A DNA stretch of 64,000 bases from a phage, in NCBI GenBank assembly GCA_016390365.1, contig GCA_016390365.1_3043.1; one strand, given 5' to 3'. Shown piece by piece: positions 3,951 through 9,747 of this stretch. The notes below the pieces were generated by a model. It saw nothing but the letters and a program-made list of their open reading frames with translations, had not been told where the DNA came from and did not search any database. The stretch's first letter is position 1. Each line of letters opens with the position of its first letter. The translations under genes were made by a program, and so were the position numbers.

Positions 3951-5279
3951 ATGCAACTGAATAATCGTGATTTAAAAAGTATCATTGATAATGAAGCATT
4001 GGCTTATGCTATGTACACGGTTGAAAATCGTGCCATTCCAAATATGATTGACGGATTTAAGCCAGTTCAACGATTTGTTATTGCTCGAGCTCTTGATTTG
4101 GCACGAGGAAATAAAGATAAGTTTCACAAACTCGCTTCTATCGCAGGCGGTGTAGCGGACCTTGGATATCATCATGGTGAAAACTCTGCGCAAGACGCAG
4201 GTGCTTTGATGGCTAACACTTGGAATAATAACTTTCCTCTGTTAGACGGTCAAGGAAACTTTGGTTCTCGTACTGTCCAAAAGGCAGCAGCAAGTCGTTA
4301 TATTTTTGCTCGTGTAAGTAAAAATTTCTATAACGTATATAAAGATACTGAATATGCTCCGGTACATCAAGATAAAGAACACATTCCGCCTGCTTTCTAT
4401 TTGCCTGTTATTCCTACTGTTCTTCTTAATGGCGTTTCCGGTATTGCAACTGGTTATGCAACTTACATTCTTCCTCATAGTGTTTCTTCTGTCAAGAAAG
4501 CTGTACTGCAAGCTCTTCAAGGAAAGAAAGTAACTAAACCGAAGGTAGAATTCCCAGAATTTCGTGGTGAAGTCGTTGAAATTGATGGGCAATATGAAAT
4601 TCGTGGAACATACAAGTTTACTTCACGAACTCAAATGCATATCACTGAGATTCCATATAAGTATGATCGTGAAACTTATGTGAGTAAAATCTTAGACCCG
4701 CTTGAAGATAAAGGCTTCATTACATGGGATGATGCTTGTGGTGAGCATGGCTTTGGCTTCAAAGTTAAATTCCGCAAAGAATACTCTTTGAGCGATAACG
4801 AAGAAGAACGCCATGCAAAAATTATGAAAGACTTCGGGTTGATTGAGCGTCGTTCTCAGAATATTACGGTTATTAATGAGAAAGGAAAACTACAAGTTTA
4901 CGATAACGTGGTTGATTTAATTAAAGACTTCGTTGAAGTTCGTAAAACTTATGTCCAAAAACGAATTGATAACAAAATTAAAGAAACTGAATCAGCATTT
5001 CGTTTAGCCTTTGCCAAGGCGCATTTCATTAAGAAAGTAATTTCAGGTGAAATTGTTGTGCAGGGTAAAACTCGCAAAGAACTGACCGAAGAACTTTCTA
5101 AAATTGATATGTATTCTTCTTATGTTGATAAACTAGTCGGAATGAATATTTTTCATATGACTTCCGACGAAGCAAAGAAACTTGCTGAAGAAGCTAAAGC
5201 TAAGAAAGAAGAAAACGAATATTGGAAAACTACTGATGTAGTTACCGAATACACTAAAGATTTAGAGGAAATCAAATGA
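3951..5279 (+). CDS. 52: DNA topoisomerase II medium subunit (GyrA-like)
   Basis: 442-aa ORF; sequence matches T4 gp52 from memory (MQLNNRDLKSIIDNEALAYAMYTVENRAIPN...). Confidence 0.95.
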   Translation: MQLNNRDLKSIIDNEALAYAMYTVENRAIPNMIDGFKPVQRFVIARALDLARGNKDKFHKLASIAGGVADLGYHHGENSAQDAGALMANTWNNNFPLLDGQGNFGSRTVQKAAASRYIFARVSKNFYNVYKDTEYAPVHQDKEHIPPAFYLPVIPTVLLNGVSGIATGYATYILPHSVSSVKKAVLQALQGKKVTKPKVEFPEFRGEVVEIDGQYEIRGTYKFTSRTQMHITEIPYKYDRETYVSKILDPLEDKGFITWDDACGEHGFGFKVKFRKEYSLSDNEEERHAKIMKDFGLIERRSQNITVINEKGKLQVYDNVVDLIKDFVEVRKTYVQKRIDNKIKETESAFRLAFAKAHFIKKVISGEIVVQGKTRKELTEELSKIDMYSSYVDKLVGMNIFHMTSDEAKKLAEEAKAKKEENEYWKTTDVVTEYTKDLEEIK

Positions 5280-5425
5280 GTCCATTCATAGGTATTACAA
5301 GCGCTGCATTAGTATCTGGTGGCATTTTACTGGCGGGTTTAGGTGTTGTTCCAGCCGTAGCAGGAGGTCTTCTTGCGTTCGGAATTCAACGTGTTATCAT
5401 GATAGTAATCGCGTTTGAACAGTAA
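5276..5425 (+). CDS. small membrane protein
   Basis: 49-aa hydrophobic ORF, ATG overlaps gene 52 stop (ATGA); followed by a strong terminator. Confidence 0.4.
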   Translation: MSPFIGITSAALVSGGILLAGLGVVPAVAGGLLAFGIQRVIMIVIAFEQ

Positions 5426-5430
5426 TTTTA

Positions 5431-5458
5431 GGGAGAGCCGAGGCTCTCCCTTTTTTAT
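5431..5458 (+). terminator. rho-independent terminator
   Basis: GGGAGAGCCGAGGCTCTCCC followed by TTTTTTATTTT. Confidence 0.75.
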
Positions 5459-5481
5459 TTTAAAATTTTTTTCACAAAACG

Positions 5482-5511
5482 GTTTACAACCAAAGCATAC
5501 TGTGGTACTAT
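5482..5511 (+). promoter_or_regulatory. T4 early-type promoter upstream of motA
   Basis: GTTTAC at 5482 and TACTAT at 5506; A/T-rich UP-like tract upstream. Confidence 0.6.
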
Positions 5512-5552
5512 ACAACTATCAACTACTGATACAGAATTACGGAGATTAGAAA

Positions 5553-6188
5553 ATGTCTAAAGTAACTTACATCATCAAAGCTTCTAACGATGTTCTGAAT
5601 GAAAAAACTGCTGCGATTTTAATTACTATTGCTAAGAAAGATTTCATTACAGCTGCAGAAGTTCGTGAGGTGCATCCAGATTTAGGTAACGCAGTAGTTA
5701 ATAGTAATATTGGGGTATTGATTAAAAAAGGCCTAGTGGAGAAATCTGGTGATGGATTAATCATTACTGGTGAAGCTCAGGATATTATTTCAAACGCAGC
5801 AACTTTATACGCACAGGAAAATGCTCCTGAACTGCTGAAAAAACGAGCAACTCGTAAAGCTCGCGAAATTACTTCTGATATGGAAGAAGATAAAGACTTC
5901 ATGTTAAAACTTTTAGATGAAAATGGATTTGTTCTTAAAAAGGTTGAAACTTATCGTAGTAACTATCTCGCTATTTTAGAAAAACGTACTCACGGAATTC
6001 GTAATTTTGAAATTAACAACAATGGAAATATGCGAATTTTTGGATACAAAATGATGGAACATCATATTCAGAAATTTACTGATATCGGAATGTCATGTAA
6101 AATTGCTAAAAACGGTAATGTGTATCTTGACATTAAACGCTCGGAAGAAAACATTGAAGCAGTAATCACTGTAGCATCTGAACTGTGA
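5553..6188 (+). CDS. motA: middle-promoter transcription activator MotA
   Basis: 211-aa ORF matching T4 MotA in length and sequence; early promoter upstream. Confidence 0.93.
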   Translation: MSKVTYIIKASNDVLNEKTAAILITIAKKDFITAAEVREVHPDLGNAVVNSNIGVLIKKGLVEKSGDGLIITGEAQDIISNAATLYAQENAPELLKKRATRKAREITSDMEEDKDFMLKLLDENGFVLKKVETYRSNYLAILEKRTHGIRNFEINNNGNMRIFGYKMMEHHIQKFTDIGMSCKIAKNGNVYLDIKRSEENIEAVITVASEL

Positions 6189-6198
6189 GGAATAAATA

Positions 6199-6528
6199 AT
6201 GAACAAGTTAGAAATTGTTAATGAACTTCGCCGTTGTGCAGAACCCACTCAAGAGGGGTGGGACATCTGGTACCACGGAGCTTATCTTGGAACTATCGTA
6301 AAGATTAAGACTGGTAAATACATGATTATTCGTGAAAGTAAAGATGCTCCAGTAGGTATTCGCAATAATTTTATGGCGGCGATAAGTTCATTTACGGATG
6401 CAGCTTACGAAATTTACCTTGCTGATTATAAAGAATTCCAGGAATCTCAACCAGTTATTCGCTCAATTGGTGTTAACAAAGCTCAACAGAAAACTTTGTG
6501 GCAGCGTATTAAAGGATGGTTTAAATGA
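6199..6528 (+). CDS. hypothetical protein
   Basis: 109-aa ORF tightly packed after motA; no motif recognised. Confidence 0.55.
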
Positions 6529-6986
6529 AAACTTTTAAAGAACGTTTAGCTCTGTTAGATAAAGCTTTGTCACGTGAGACTCCAGAAAGTCTGGCTGCTA
6601 AATTAGCTTCTTACAGTGGTGAATACACAGAACAAAATGTTTTAGATGAAGTTCCTGAAATCTGTTGGCAGACTGCGTATTGGGATGAAAACCAAAAGTA
6701 TCAACGACGAATTGTTTGCGCAGCCAACCGTTTTAAATTAAAAGATGGACGAACTCTTGTTATTCCAGGTGCTCGTCATTATTCTAAAGATATGGCCGAA
6801 GTTTTAGATGTAGTTAAACCTCAATTAGTTACTCAACAAGTTTGTGATGATGACCAAGGGTTTATTGACCAATATAGTAATTATTGGACACGTGAAGAAG
6901 CAATGATTATTGCAACTTACGCTGGACAAGTACGTATTGAACGTGGTGGTAGTGAAAAAGAACTTTACTCTGAGGACCTTTACTAA
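6525..6986 (+). CDS. hypothetical protein
   Basis: 153-aa ORF, start overlaps previous stop (ATGA); no motif recognised. Confidence 0.55.
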
Positions 6987-7282
6987 TGAATATTAAAAAG
7001 TTTCAAATTGATGGAATTACTAATCAAATCCAGGCACTAGAATATGCCAATAAAATGATGTCAACTAATTGGGGAATTTATACCAATGAGCCGGGATTTA
7101 AGTTCTGCGATATGGAATTCGCCAAAAAGCTTGTAGGAAAAGATTATGTATGTCCATTTAGTTCTCCAGTAAATGGAATGCTAAAACCTGCTTTACGCGA
7201 TCTTTATATTGCGATGAACGAAGAGATGATAAAAGAGCTAAAACGTCAACTGAAGGTGATTCAATTTGGCCAGGGAAATTAA
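6986..7282 (+). CDS. hypothetical protein
   Basis: 98-aa ORF, start overlaps previous stop. Confidence 0.55.
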   Translation: MNIKKFQIDGITNQIQALEYANKMMSTNWGIYTNEPGFKFCDMEFAKKLVGKDYVCPFSSPVNGMLKPALRDLYIAMNEEMIKELKRQLKVIQFGQGN

Positions 7283-7484
7283 TTCAAAATCTGACTATTT
7301 TAATTCTCTCAATGATAAAGATAAAAATCTAATACGGCATTTTATTGTTGAGATGGGATATATTGATACACGTGATTTAAGAGAACATATATTTGAATGT
7401 GGTGTAGCTAAAAAGTTTTCATTCACATGCAAATGTTTGAGAGAGGTAATTCAGCACTATGAACAATTTAGTCGCAAAACATAA
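7266..7484 (+). CDS. hypothetical protein (start uncertain)
   Basis: 72-aa track ORF overlapping previous gene; alternative internal start possible. Confidence 0.35.
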   Translation: MAREINSKSDYFNSLNDKDKNLIRHFIVEMGYIDTRDLREHIFECGVAKKFSFTCKCLREVIQHYEQFSRKT

Positions 7485-7567
7485 TTTTAATAAAGCTTCT
7501 GTTCATAAGGATAAGAAGAAAGCGTTTAAAGAATCTAATCGCAAACAGAAACATAAGGGGAAGGTCT

Positions 7568-7846
7568 ATGATTATTGATTCTCAATCTGTGGTTCAATAC
7601 ACAATCAAAATTGATATTCTAGAAAAGCTATATAAGTTTCTACCAAATTTATACCACTCAATTGTTAATGAATTAATTGAAGAACTACATCTTGAGAATA
7701 ATGATTTCTTGATTGGAACTTATAAAGACCTCTCAAAAGCAGGATATTTTTACGTAATTCCAGCTCCAGGAAAAAGTATTGATGATGTATTAAAAACTAT
7801 AATGATTTATGTCCATGATTATGAAATTGAAGATTATTTCGAATGA
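7568..7846 (+). CDS. arn: anti-restriction nuclease Arn (McrBC inhibitor)
   Basis: 92-aa acidic ORF immediately upstream of asiA; length and position match T4 arn. Confidence 0.6.
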   Translation: MIIDSQSVVQYTIKIDILEKLYKFLPNLYHSIVNELIEELHLENNDFLIGTYKDLSKAGYFYVIPAPGKSIDDVLKTIMIYVHDYEIEDYFE

Positions 7847-7995
7847 GTCATAATCTTGAAAAAGTAATCGAGCATAATGTAGCTCAGGAACGCGAGTCGT
7901 TCAAGGAATTCGTAGAAAAAATTTTTGAAGAAAATAACACAGACCAGTTTACAAATCAAGCGTCTGATGATATTATAATAAAGTCAACTAATTGA
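7843..7995 (+). CDS. small acidic hypothetical protein
   Basis: 50-aa ORF; ATG overlaps arn stop (ATGA); below track cutoff. Confidence 0.3.
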   Translation: MSHNLEKVIEHNVAQERESFKEFVEKIFEENNTDQFTNQASDDIIIKSTN

Positions 7996-8007
7996 GTGGT
8001 ATAGTTA

Positions 8008-8280
8008 ATGAATAAAAACATTGATACAGTTCGTGAAATTATTACTGTTGCGTCTATTTTGATTAAATTTTCCAGAGAAGATATTGTTGAGAATCGTGCT
8101 AATTTTATTGCATTTCTGAATGAGATTGGAGTAACGCATGAAGGTAGAAAGTTAAATCAGAATTCATTCCGTAAAATTGTTTCTGAATTAACCCAAGAAG
8201 ATAAGAAAACCCTCATCGACGAATTCAACGAGGGTTTTGAGGGTGTATATCGATATCTAGAGATGTATACAAACAAATAA
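8008..8280 (+). CDS. asiA: anti-sigma70 factor AsiA
   Basis: 90-aa ORF matching T4 AsiA (MNKNIDTVREIITVASILIKF...). Confidence 0.95.
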   Translation: MNKNIDTVREIITVASILIKFSREDIVENRANFIAFLNEIGVTHEGRKLNQNSFRKIVSELTQEDKKTLIDEFNEGFEGVYRYLEMYTNK

Positions 8281-8937
8281 TTATTTAGCCCTTCCTAATA
8301 TTCTGGCCGCCTGAGAACATATTGATTCAAGGCGGTCATTACTTATATGATCATTTCTATACCAGTACATGGTTATTGTTCCAGCATAGATATTATCCAA
8401 ATTGAAATATGGACAACTGTACATGTAATTTATTTCGGGAGTAGGCTTTTTAGTTGGTAAAAAAGCAAATTTTGAGTTGGAATAATAATGACGTCCATTT
8501 AAATGAACTGTGTATTCATCCATAGTTTTATCAACAGGATATCCTCCAAGTGATTTTTCAGTTATTGTTGAAGGTAATCTTCCTTCGTATGCTATAATAT
8601 CAACAAAATAGTTTAAGTTTTTAGGGCGGAAAGAATACACCGCACTAAAGTCTGCCTCAGATGATATATGAACTATCTGGAGTTGTTCCAGGGCGACAGA
8701 TTCAAAGCGTGCATTTCTTTCCTTTTCAATAATTTCACTGTATGTTTCATACTTTGATTGCTTATAGTACTCAAAGAAACTATCTCCCCTATACCAAACA
8801 ATCGCCATTATAAACAAAAGAATTACGACAGCTACCCGGGAAGCAAGAACTTTCCCGGTAGCATTATCTTTGAACAAGCGATCTAGAACACCAAATAGAA
8901 TATCAGAGGGCGAAAATGATATTCTAGGTGCTGCCAT
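8281..8937 (-). CDS. t: holin T
   Basis: 218-aa ORF with N-terminal TM segment and large periplasmic domain; matches T4 holin length and sequence. Confidence 0.93.
   Translation of the reverse strand: MAAPRISFSPSDILFGVLDRLFKDNATGKVLASRVAVVILLFIMAIVWYRGDSFFEYYKQSKYETYSEIIEKERNARFESVALEQLQIVHISSEADFSAVYSFRPKNLNYFVDIIAYEGRLPSTITEKSLGGYPVDKTMDEYTVHLNGRHYYSNSKFAFLPTKKPTPEINYMYSCPYFNLDNIYAGTITMYWYRNDHISNDRLESICSQAARILGRAK

Positions 8938-8967: not shown

Positions 8968-9747
<780 letters not shown>

Follow-up and report, generated by a model that had tools for sequence, protein, structure and literature searches.

The closest described counterpart of the DNA considered here is the arn operon of T-even phages. 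In phage T2, the genes arn.4, arn.3, arn.2, arn.1 as well as arn are carried on one abundant transcript, with which the host small RNA (sRNA) ArcZ pairs at positions +285 to +294 of arn.2 and which it protects from RNase E; a GcAUU motif located 11 nucleotides (nt) before the ATG of a short arn.1 is the putative RNase E site (Collins et al., bioRxiv 10.64898/2026.06.19.733364). Loss of ArcZ lowers the phage yield, deletion of mcrC suppresses this defect, and the authors describe the functions of arn.1 to arn.4 as unknown, with counter-defense as a possibility (bioRxiv 10.64898/2026.06.19.733364). This preprint, dated June 2026, is the only paper we found that discusses arn.1 to arn.4, and arn, which encodes a DNA-mimic inhibitor of McrBC, is the only characterized gene of the transcript. 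In T4, omics data place arn.2, arn.3, and arn.4 in the early class at both the RNA and the protein level, and arn.1 in the early class for RNA and the middle class for protein (PMC9697503 supplement). We analyzed the corresponding locus in a 64,000-nt stretch of phage DNA (contig GCA_016390365.1_3043.1 of assembly GCA_016390365.1; the whole stretch is referred to here as the window), i.e., the block of four open reading frames (ORFs) at positions 6199 to 7484, between motA and arn.

We identified the block as the T-even genes arn.4, arn.3, and arn.2 along with arn.1, which form the upstream part of the arn operon, and we put the probability of this reading, covering both the identity of the genes and the anatomy of the operon, at roughly 0.9. 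The ORF list and the Pfam and PHROG matches assign the window to a T-even phage (Tequatrovirus), with the plus-strand gene order 52, motA.1, motA, the arn.4-to-arn.1 block, arn, asiA.1, and asiA (Table 1). Outside the first ~40 codons of arn.3, the window and T4 DNA are ~98% identical. Each of the four ORFs matched a PHROG (E values on the order of 1e-38 to 1e-73): Arn.4 matched phrog_1594 (2.5e-54; residues 1 to 109), Arn.3 matched phrog_839 (4e-73; all invariant residues present), Arn.2 matched phrog_1844 (2e-51; homologs 92 to 99% identical), and Arn.1 matched phrog_4452 (5e-38; residues 1 to 72), which is the long form of a family whose short form is phrog_6212. All 55 homolog clusters of Arn.4 carry PF26821, and PF26092 is precomputed on 157 clusters of Arn.3 homologs. 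Furthermore, arn.4 lies directly downstream of motA in T4, T6, JK45, IME523, and K65. The block is thus already known as a feature and consists of ordinary, catalogued T4 genes. An earlier reading of the window from its sequence only had found no recognizable family for the four products. This held for the local copy of Pfam-A, and when all ORFs were scanned with Pfam, NCBIfam, and PADLOC, a CmdA-like match of Arn.3 (see below) was the only informative one for the block, but it did not hold for the newer precomputed families PF26821 (Arn.4), PF26092 (Arn.3), and PF26819 (Arn.2).

The four ORFs are confirmed as genuine genes, and not chance reading frames, because of their PHROG matches, their presence in many well-covered database records, their low ratios of nonsynonymous to synonymous substitution rates (dN/dS), and the detection of both RNA and protein in T4, which indicates that all four products are made. 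A megablast search with the region from motA to asiA matched 828 phage records, of which 478 were covered to at least 80%, and dN/dS relative to the diverged phage JK45 was 0.09 for arn.4, 0.15 for arn.3, and 0.10 for arn.1. The coordinates and lengths of these overlapping plus-strand ORFs (109, 153, 98, and 72 amino acids [aa]) were exactly as the sequence-only reading had given them. Start and stop codons overlap at every junction: as ATGA between arn.4 and arn.3 (positions 6525 to 6528), as TAATG between arn.3 and arn.2 (6984 to 6988), and by 17 nt between arn.2 and arn.1. The Shine-Dalgarno sequence of arn.4 (GAGGA), located 7 nt upstream of its start, overlaps the stop codon of motA. All four products are small and hydrophilic, suggesting that they are soluble cytoplasmic proteins. 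In many GenBank records, homologs of arn.1 to arn.4 carry the label "anti-restriction nuclease," and block genes go by unrelated names in the records of T2 and T6 (e.g., "endonuclease II" and "virion structural protein"). No profile match supports such labels, which were apparently carried over from gene names or by best-hit transfer; with the DM_Arn profile (PF22134), only the ORF at 7568 to 7846 matched, and the four block ORFs gave no match at E values up to 0.1.

Table 1. Positions of genes, predicted signals, and protein regions in the motA-to-arn part of the window (aa, amino acids; pI, isoelectric point)
Feature	Position	Strand	Description
Terminator-like hairpin	5430-5451		Precedes the promoter-like site
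Sigma-70 early-promoter-like site	5483-5511	+	TTTACA-17-TACTAT with TG extension, upstream of motA
motA	5553-6188	+	Activator of middle transcription; Pfam MotA_activ (5e-61) and MotCF (7e-66)
arn.4	6199-6528	+	109 aa, ATG start, pI 9.2
arn.3	6525-6986	+	153 aa, ATG start, pI 4.9
Arn.3 N-terminal module	6525-6620	+	aa 1-32; two predicted helices (4-16 and 20-28)
Arn.3 C-terminal core	6687-6983	+	About aa 55-153; C-terminal end LYSEDLY
arn.2	6986-7282	+	98 aa, ATG start, pI 8.9
arn.1	7266-7484	+	72 aa (predicted), TTG start, pI 8.5
ArcZ target CCAGGGAAAT	7270-7279	+	Exact complement of ArcZ nt 65-74 (AUUUCCCUGG)
GCATT	7337-7341	+	Proposed RNase E motif, 11 nt upstream of internal ATG 7353; arn.1 codons 24-26
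39-aa ORF (DUF7230)	7459-7578	+	Very basic, pI 10.2, ATG 7459
arn	7568-7846	+	DNA-mimic McrBC inhibitor; Pfam DM_Arn (1.2e-53)

Hidden Markov models (HMMs) built here detected the complete set of four genes in T4, T2, and T6 as well as in the five BASEL T-even phages that were fetched, and ~800 phage records carry the block. Three of the genes (arn.4, arn.3, and arn.1) are also present together in the other Tevenvirinae-type genera sampled (i.e., Kanagawavirus, Marfavirus, and an unclassified Klebsiella phage). The least conserved member is arn.2, a fast-evolving gene restricted to Tequatrovirus-like phages: it formed only 23 clusters, nearly all of them >90% identical, and its sequence has diverged in JK45, AugustSocin, and K65, whereas IME523 and P545 lack the gene. 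The Klebsiella phage P545 (Marfavirus; locus L016, 1998 to 3265) carries arn.4, a 59-aa ORF, arn.1, arn.3, and the 39-aa gene described below, so that the block members are adjacent despite the altered order. Some Tequatrovirus genomes have an extra 51-aa ORF between arn.4 and arn.3, as in WilhelmHis (L019, 4841 to 4996, minus strand) and in a second locus (L008, between 1602 and 1745). WilhelmHis plates normally on cells carrying the cmdTAC defense genes discussed below; this is an anecdote and not a correlation.

Two of the best-studied records carry lesions in arn.4. The gene starts with ATA in T4, compared with ATG in the window and in T6, and its T4 annotation begins at an internal ATG and spans 68 aa; T4 nevertheless keeps the full frame open, and the match of this frame to the arn.4 HMM is strong (1.5e-62). 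In the T2 record (AP018813), the loss of 2 nt shifts the frame and splits arn.4 in its conserved N-terminal part. We located these lesions at 5834 to 5960 of the T4 locus (L001, minus strand) and at 7314 to 7641 of the T2 locus (L017, minus strand). By comparison, arn.4 is intact in T6 and ~50 other clusters (107 to 119 aa), and the N-terminal 41 aa that the T4 annotation leaves out are the best-conserved part of the protein. Both the start loss in the T4 record and the frameshift in the T2 record count towards dispensability of the gene. Given these lesions and the missing 39-aa gene in the T4 reference, deletion or knock-down screens in T4 may under-report this locus.

Only the promoter-like site upstream of motA could feed motA and the arn block. 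Our promoter and terminator scan scored no site in the motA-arn interval, positions 5200 to 8400 contained no strict match to the MotA box (WWTGCTTYA), and an Rfam search of the same positions returned only sub-threshold chance matches. The chain from arn.4 to arn would therefore most likely be transcribed from the early promoter ahead of motA. Because start and stop codons overlap and neither a promoter nor a terminator was scored between motA and arn, the genes of this interval may be regarded as one chain of overlapping, ribosome-coupled ORFs on a single transcript. The overlaps continue past arn.1 through the 39-aa ORF (7459 to 7578) and into arn at 7568.

Full-length Arn.1 is predicted to comprise 72 aa, starting at TTG 7266, with a Shine-Dalgarno sequence (AAGGTGA) 6 nt upstream. 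In a tblastn search with this 72-aa protein, 808 phage records matched, and 803 of them covered at least 80% of its length, at identities down to 50%. The N-terminal extension (residues 1 to 29) contains residues that are invariant across five lineages (Y11, F12, N13, S14, K20, I23, F26, and I27, among others), and codons 3 to 29 had a dN of 0.17 and a dS of 1.43 relative to JK45 (dN/dS, ~0.12). Full-length arn.1 starts at ATG or GTG in other genera, each time with its own Shine-Dalgarno sequence, and several records annotate the long form. An alignment of the five lineages and a T5-like Serratia phage further revealed invariant H41, C45, C57, and H64, suggesting a metal site. The Serratia phage in question, Kamaji (Demerecviridae; L015, 2414 to 2698), encodes a 94-aa homolog (32% identity) that retains the H-C-C-H pattern; its gene sits among replication genes, between those for the D2 protein and DNA ligase, with no arn.4 or arn.3 nearby.

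The ArcZ target reported in T2 is also present here. The sequence CCAGGGAAAT lies at +285 to +294 of arn.2 and occurs only once in the 64-kb window, and no other exact ArcZ complement in positions 5553 to 8280 is as long; the ArcZ sequence was verified in 5,417 of 5,426 E. coli genomes. By analogy with T2, ArcZ would pair with this site at the arn.2/arn.1 junction and shield the transcript from RNase E. ArcZ regulation at this locus is represented by sequence motifs, and the behavior of transcript stability is that reported for T2. The site covers codons 2 to 5 of full-length arn.1; given its position on the arn.1 initiation region, ArcZ may act via arn.1 translation as well as via RNase E access. 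Since Arn.1 appears to be 72 aa long, the 70-nt "intergenic region" that the preprint places between arn.2 and the short arn.1 would be coding, i.e., the N terminus of Arn.1. The site is not conserved in JK45, IME523, K65, and P545, although the genes are kept. With RNAduplex, the optimum for the ArcZ seed was a long imperfect duplex in the arn.3 N-terminal module (6560 to 6599, plus strand; −29 kcal/mol), which scored better than the reported site (7270 to 7281); this duplex depends on large interior loops and probably represents an artefact.

Between arn.1 and arn, we observed a further conserved gene that the sequence-only reading had overlooked. This 39-aa ORF (MNNLVAKHNFNKASVHKDKKKAFKESNRKQKHKGKVYDY) shares 26 nt with the end of arn.1 and 11 nt with the start of arn, and it matched Pfam DUF7230 (1.2e-11) and phrog_1359 (5e-23). 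It was 71 to 100% identical in all 22 T4-type loci examined (dN/dS, 0.13) and is annotated in T2 and T6, although not in the T4 reference. A relationship of the peptide to ArfA was considered and set aside: BLASTP returned nothing, E. coli ArfA matched DUF7230 at an E value of only 0.11, and we claim no link to ribosome rescue.

Arn.3 consists of two parts, i.e., a variable N terminus of ~45 aa and a conserved core, and after residue 45 it is 99% identical to T4 Arn.3. Its AlphaFold2 model had a predicted local distance difference test score (pLDDT) of 87, with values of 89 to 97 in the core domain. The core (motifs RIVCAAN, ARH, QGFID, R-EA-IA-GQ, and C-terminal SEDLY) is widespread in phages (3,433 clusters) and is also found inside "large polyvalent protein" ORFs. 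Its invariant Arg, His, Gln, and Asp residues and the fixed C-terminal SEDLY suggest a conserved site for a ligand or target. Single-sequence and profile searches of the PDB gave no match, and the core showed no fold similarity to solved structures (nucleotide sponges, 2H phosphoesterases, and DNA mimics among anti-defense proteins). Ten long proteins with the Arn.3 domain had no Pfam domain in their N-terminal parts, and the neighborhoods of 65 Arn.3-like genes in 41 phage groups contained no recurrent partner; a macro-domain-like neighbor noticed by eye had no Pfam support and was dropped. The N-terminal module is the mosaic, fast-changing part of the gene, and the variant found in T4, T2, and T6 is 49% identical to that of the window. 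The whole of arn.3 in JK45 (L010, 1775 to 2233) is nearly identical to that of the window (dS, 0.076), while its neighbors have dS values of >1.4 (arn.4 and arn.1, 1.6 to 1.9). Such a low value amid diverged flanks points to recent lateral exchange of arn.3 alone.

The first residues of Arn.3 resemble an antitoxin. PD-T4-9, i.e., CmdTAC, comprises an mRNA ADP-ribosyltransferase toxin, the antitoxin CmdA (component B), and a SecB-like chaperone. It targets and aborts T-even infections, CmdA is composed of two N-terminal helices and a disordered tail, and T4 can escape the system by stabilizing CmdA (PMC11618068). Residues 1 to 31 of Arn.3 matched positions 1 to 31 (of 77) of the PADLOC profile PD-T4-9_B (E value, 9e-9), and a BLASTP alignment of residues 1 to 32 with residues 1 to 32 of CmdA from E. 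coli N2250 was ungapped, with 17 of 32 positions identical (53%; E value, 3e-9). The CmdA reference was taken from the cmdTAC locus in a P2-like prophage of N2250 (L104, 2535 to 2768), which we found via a primer in the Nature 2024 supplement; the protein has 77 aa and ends in DLAA (LAA degron). On this alignment, residues 1 to 32 of Arn.3 are homologous to the N terminus of CmdA. Seven further carriers of the module also matched positions 1 to 31 of PD-T4-9_B. The module appears as a portable unit of ~30 aa (consensus, KPFEERLxLLDKALxxETPESLxxKLxSY): it occurs inside a 320-aa Jedunavirus protein of Klebsiella phage PCCM_KpP_22 (L013, 2198 to 3160) and at the head of a 142-aa protein with Cys-rich motifs in Vibrio phage 277E43-1 (L014, 2501 to 2929), and both proteins are unrelated to Arn.3 outside the module. 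Scans of genomes and plasmids for the module found nothing, and the window ORFs scanned gave no match to PD-T4-9_A or PD-T4-9_C.

Several other accounts of the block have to be weighed against its assignment to the arn operon. The sequence-only reading had supposed fewer ORFs in T4 at this position and proposed a lineage-specific early accessory module, missing or reduced in T4. T4 indeed looks poorer because its arn.4 and arn.1 are annotated short (68 and 43 aa), with apparent gaps. According to the T4 annotation and our alignment, however, the four genes are all present at this position in T4, T2, and T6, T4 retains both an open full-length arn.4 frame (ATA for ATG) and an intact long arn.1 frame, and the block extends to ~800 records and, for arn.4, arn.3, and arn.1, to other genera; both claims are thereby contradicted, and this account is scarcely credible. 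It is also very unlikely that the stretch is mainly an RNA leader controlling arn via ArcZ and RNase E, with non-coding DNA in the 70 nt that separate arn.2 from the short arn.1. Reporters containing arn.2 and the 70-nt segment do show ArcZ- and RNase E-dependent control (bioRxiv 10.64898/2026.06.19.733364), and the ArcZ complement and GCATT are both present in the window. The 70 nt nevertheless encode the conserved Arn.1 N terminus at a low dN/dS, other genera start and annotate the full-length gene as described above, and the ArcZ site is absent from genera that keep the genes. RNA control and coding can coexist, so that the "non-coding" part alone is contradicted. Another account would make the block a part of the MotA/AsiA transcription or host-takeover program, with Arn.1, for example, as a small helical protein that binds zinc and targets RNA polymerase or the nucleoid. 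The block lies between the two sigma-70-directed middle-transcription factors in every fetched T4-type locus spanning the region, it is expressed early, the Arn.1 sequence is helix rich with its invariant H-C-C-H residues, and an Arn.1 homolog is found among replication genes in a T5-like phage. In sequence, however, the block proteins matched none of the families that bind DNA or RNA polymerase, and synteny alone is weak in mosaic phage genomes; we consider this account unlikely.

Taking the block as the upstream part of the arn operon, we infer that its products are non-essential, host-directed accessory proteins. The sequence-only reading of early accessory genes is borne out as far as the T4 omics class is concerned, and its suggestion of host takeover or anti-defense is plausible but unproven; clear T4-like orthologs exist at the locus, and none has a known function. 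Counter-defense is our leading guess, although a tentative one that we rate below even odds. Arn.4, Arn.3, and Arn.1 always co-occur in the T4-type phages sampled and may act together, and Arn.3 seems the best candidate effector, with a swappable CmdA-like two-helix head joined to a widespread phage domain. Arn.3 could be a phage antitoxin mimic whose N-terminal hairpin binds CmdT as CmdA does; with neither the chaperone-addiction tail nor the LAA degron, it would persist through infection and hold the toxin neutralized. The in-register alignment with CmdA from residue 1, the seven other carriers matching the same profile positions, the agreement of the CmdA helix pair (PMC11618068) with predicted helices 4 to 16 and 20 to 28 of the Arn.3 model, the targeting of T-even phages by CmdTAC, and the T4 escape route via CmdA stabilization (PMC11618068) are all consistent with this, and rapid exchange of the module and the wide variation said to exist among CmdA sequences would both fit an arms race. 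A toxin-binding role of the CmdA helices is our own supposition, however, and the module, which is found next to unrelated domains in other proteins too, may thus be a generic helical adapter. Plating efficiencies on CmdTAC (Nature 2024 source data; 12 BASEL T-even phages plus T2, T4, and T6) could be compared with the modules that we read in five BASEL phages and in T2, T4, and T6. Paracelsus (Bas36), which carries the window-type module with two substitutions, is restricted ~2 × 10^5-fold by the CmdTAC of ECOR22. T2, T4, T6, and most BASEL T-even phages are likewise restricted, and those read (T2, T4, T6, Bas36, Bas37, and Bas39) all carry some version of the module, that of T2, T4, T6, KarlGJung, and FriedrichMiescher being the T4 type. 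The resistant phages WilhelmHis and AugustSocin (Bas35 and Bas38) carry two further variants that are no closer to CmdA. A simple model in which a CmdA-like module confers resistance to CmdTAC found no supportive pattern in these phages for this CmdTAC; an allele-specific version may hold, given the wide variation among CmdA sequences. Position 9 of the module is Glu in both resistant phages, but these are two phages only, and many other loci differ between them. An anti-CmdTAC role for Arn.3 is thus a weak lead, because a phage with the same N-terminal module is still restricted, and the mimic proposal is distinctly unlikely. In a broader version, which we rate as equally improbable, Arn.3 would be a modular counter-defense protein: a hypervariable hairpin, copied from or shared with CmdA, would dock CmdT-type or other toxins (the Vibrio and Klebsiella phage variants docking others), and a protease-resistant core would hold the toxin neutral after the host antitoxin is degraded. 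The T-even variants would then be specificity alleles for different CmdTAC variants, which, if true, would explain the lack of protection of Paracelsus against ECOR22 CmdTAC. Several points weigh against our overall view of the block. The preprint calls the cluster middle, whereas the T4 omics data and our promoter scan indicate early expression. Arn.3-like genes occur in 41 other phage groups without a recurrent neighbor and without adjacent arn.4 or arn.1, so that the arn.4/arn.3/arn.1 triad may reflect lineage synteny and not a complex. The literature we found contains no experiment assigning a function to any of the four proteins, and library and PDB searches gave no fold or sequence link of the block proteins to any characterized protein. 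Finally, the suppression of the T2 ΔarcZ defect by ΔmcrC, as the preprint reports it, would mean that Arn by itself accounts for the phenotype that can be measured for the transcript.

The new elements in this analysis are the 72-aa model of Arn.1 with its ArcZ overlap, the 39-aa gene that had been overlooked, the damage to arn.4 in the records of T4 and T2, and the two-part architecture of Arn.3 with its CmdA-homologous head. This head offers a concrete experimental handle on a gene family that has been without one for 30 years, and CmdA mimicry in its simplest form is already disfavored by the published plating data. Downstream of the operon, the minus strand carries genes for the holin t, a T2/T6-type gp38 adhesin, and gp37. 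The gp38 gene (8968 to 9747) encodes an adhesin of the T2/T6 type with glycine-rich repeats, not an assembly chaperone of the T4 type, and its GC content is 0.47 to 0.52, compared with ~0.35 in its surroundings.

Compared with the T4 locus, the window has the block at the same place between motA and arn, with its genes in the same order and on the same strand, and nearly the same nucleotide sequence. The differences are that arn.4 starts with ATG and encodes 109 aa here, compared with ATA and an annotated 68 aa in T4; that the N-terminal module of arn.3 differs (49% identity over 45 aa, with one extra residue); and that arn.1 is read as 72 aa from TTG, compared with 43 aa annotated in T4, where the long frame is intact. 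With the T2 operon, the window shares the five-gene order, the position of the ArcZ target, and GCATT 11 nt before the internal arn.1 ATG. Our reading departs from the described T2 operon in placing the ArcZ site within the arn.1 start region and the RNase E motif within the 72-aa Arn.1 coding sequence; in addition, the 39-aa gene goes unmentioned in the preprint passages that we read, and arn.4 is frameshifted in the T2 record. Arn, the T4 anti-restriction DNA mimic, shares its transcript with the block, whereas none of the four block proteins resembles it in sequence. CmdA and Arn.3 align without gaps over their first 32 residues, and both are predicted to begin with a helix pair. CmdA, however, continues into a disordered chaperone-addiction tail with an LAA degron and has its gene flanked by those for an ADP-ribosyltransferase toxin and a SecB-like chaperone, whereas Arn.3 continues into a folded domain of ~100 aa ending in SEDLY and has arn.4 and arn.2 as its neighbors, with neither a toxin nor a chaperone gene beside it.

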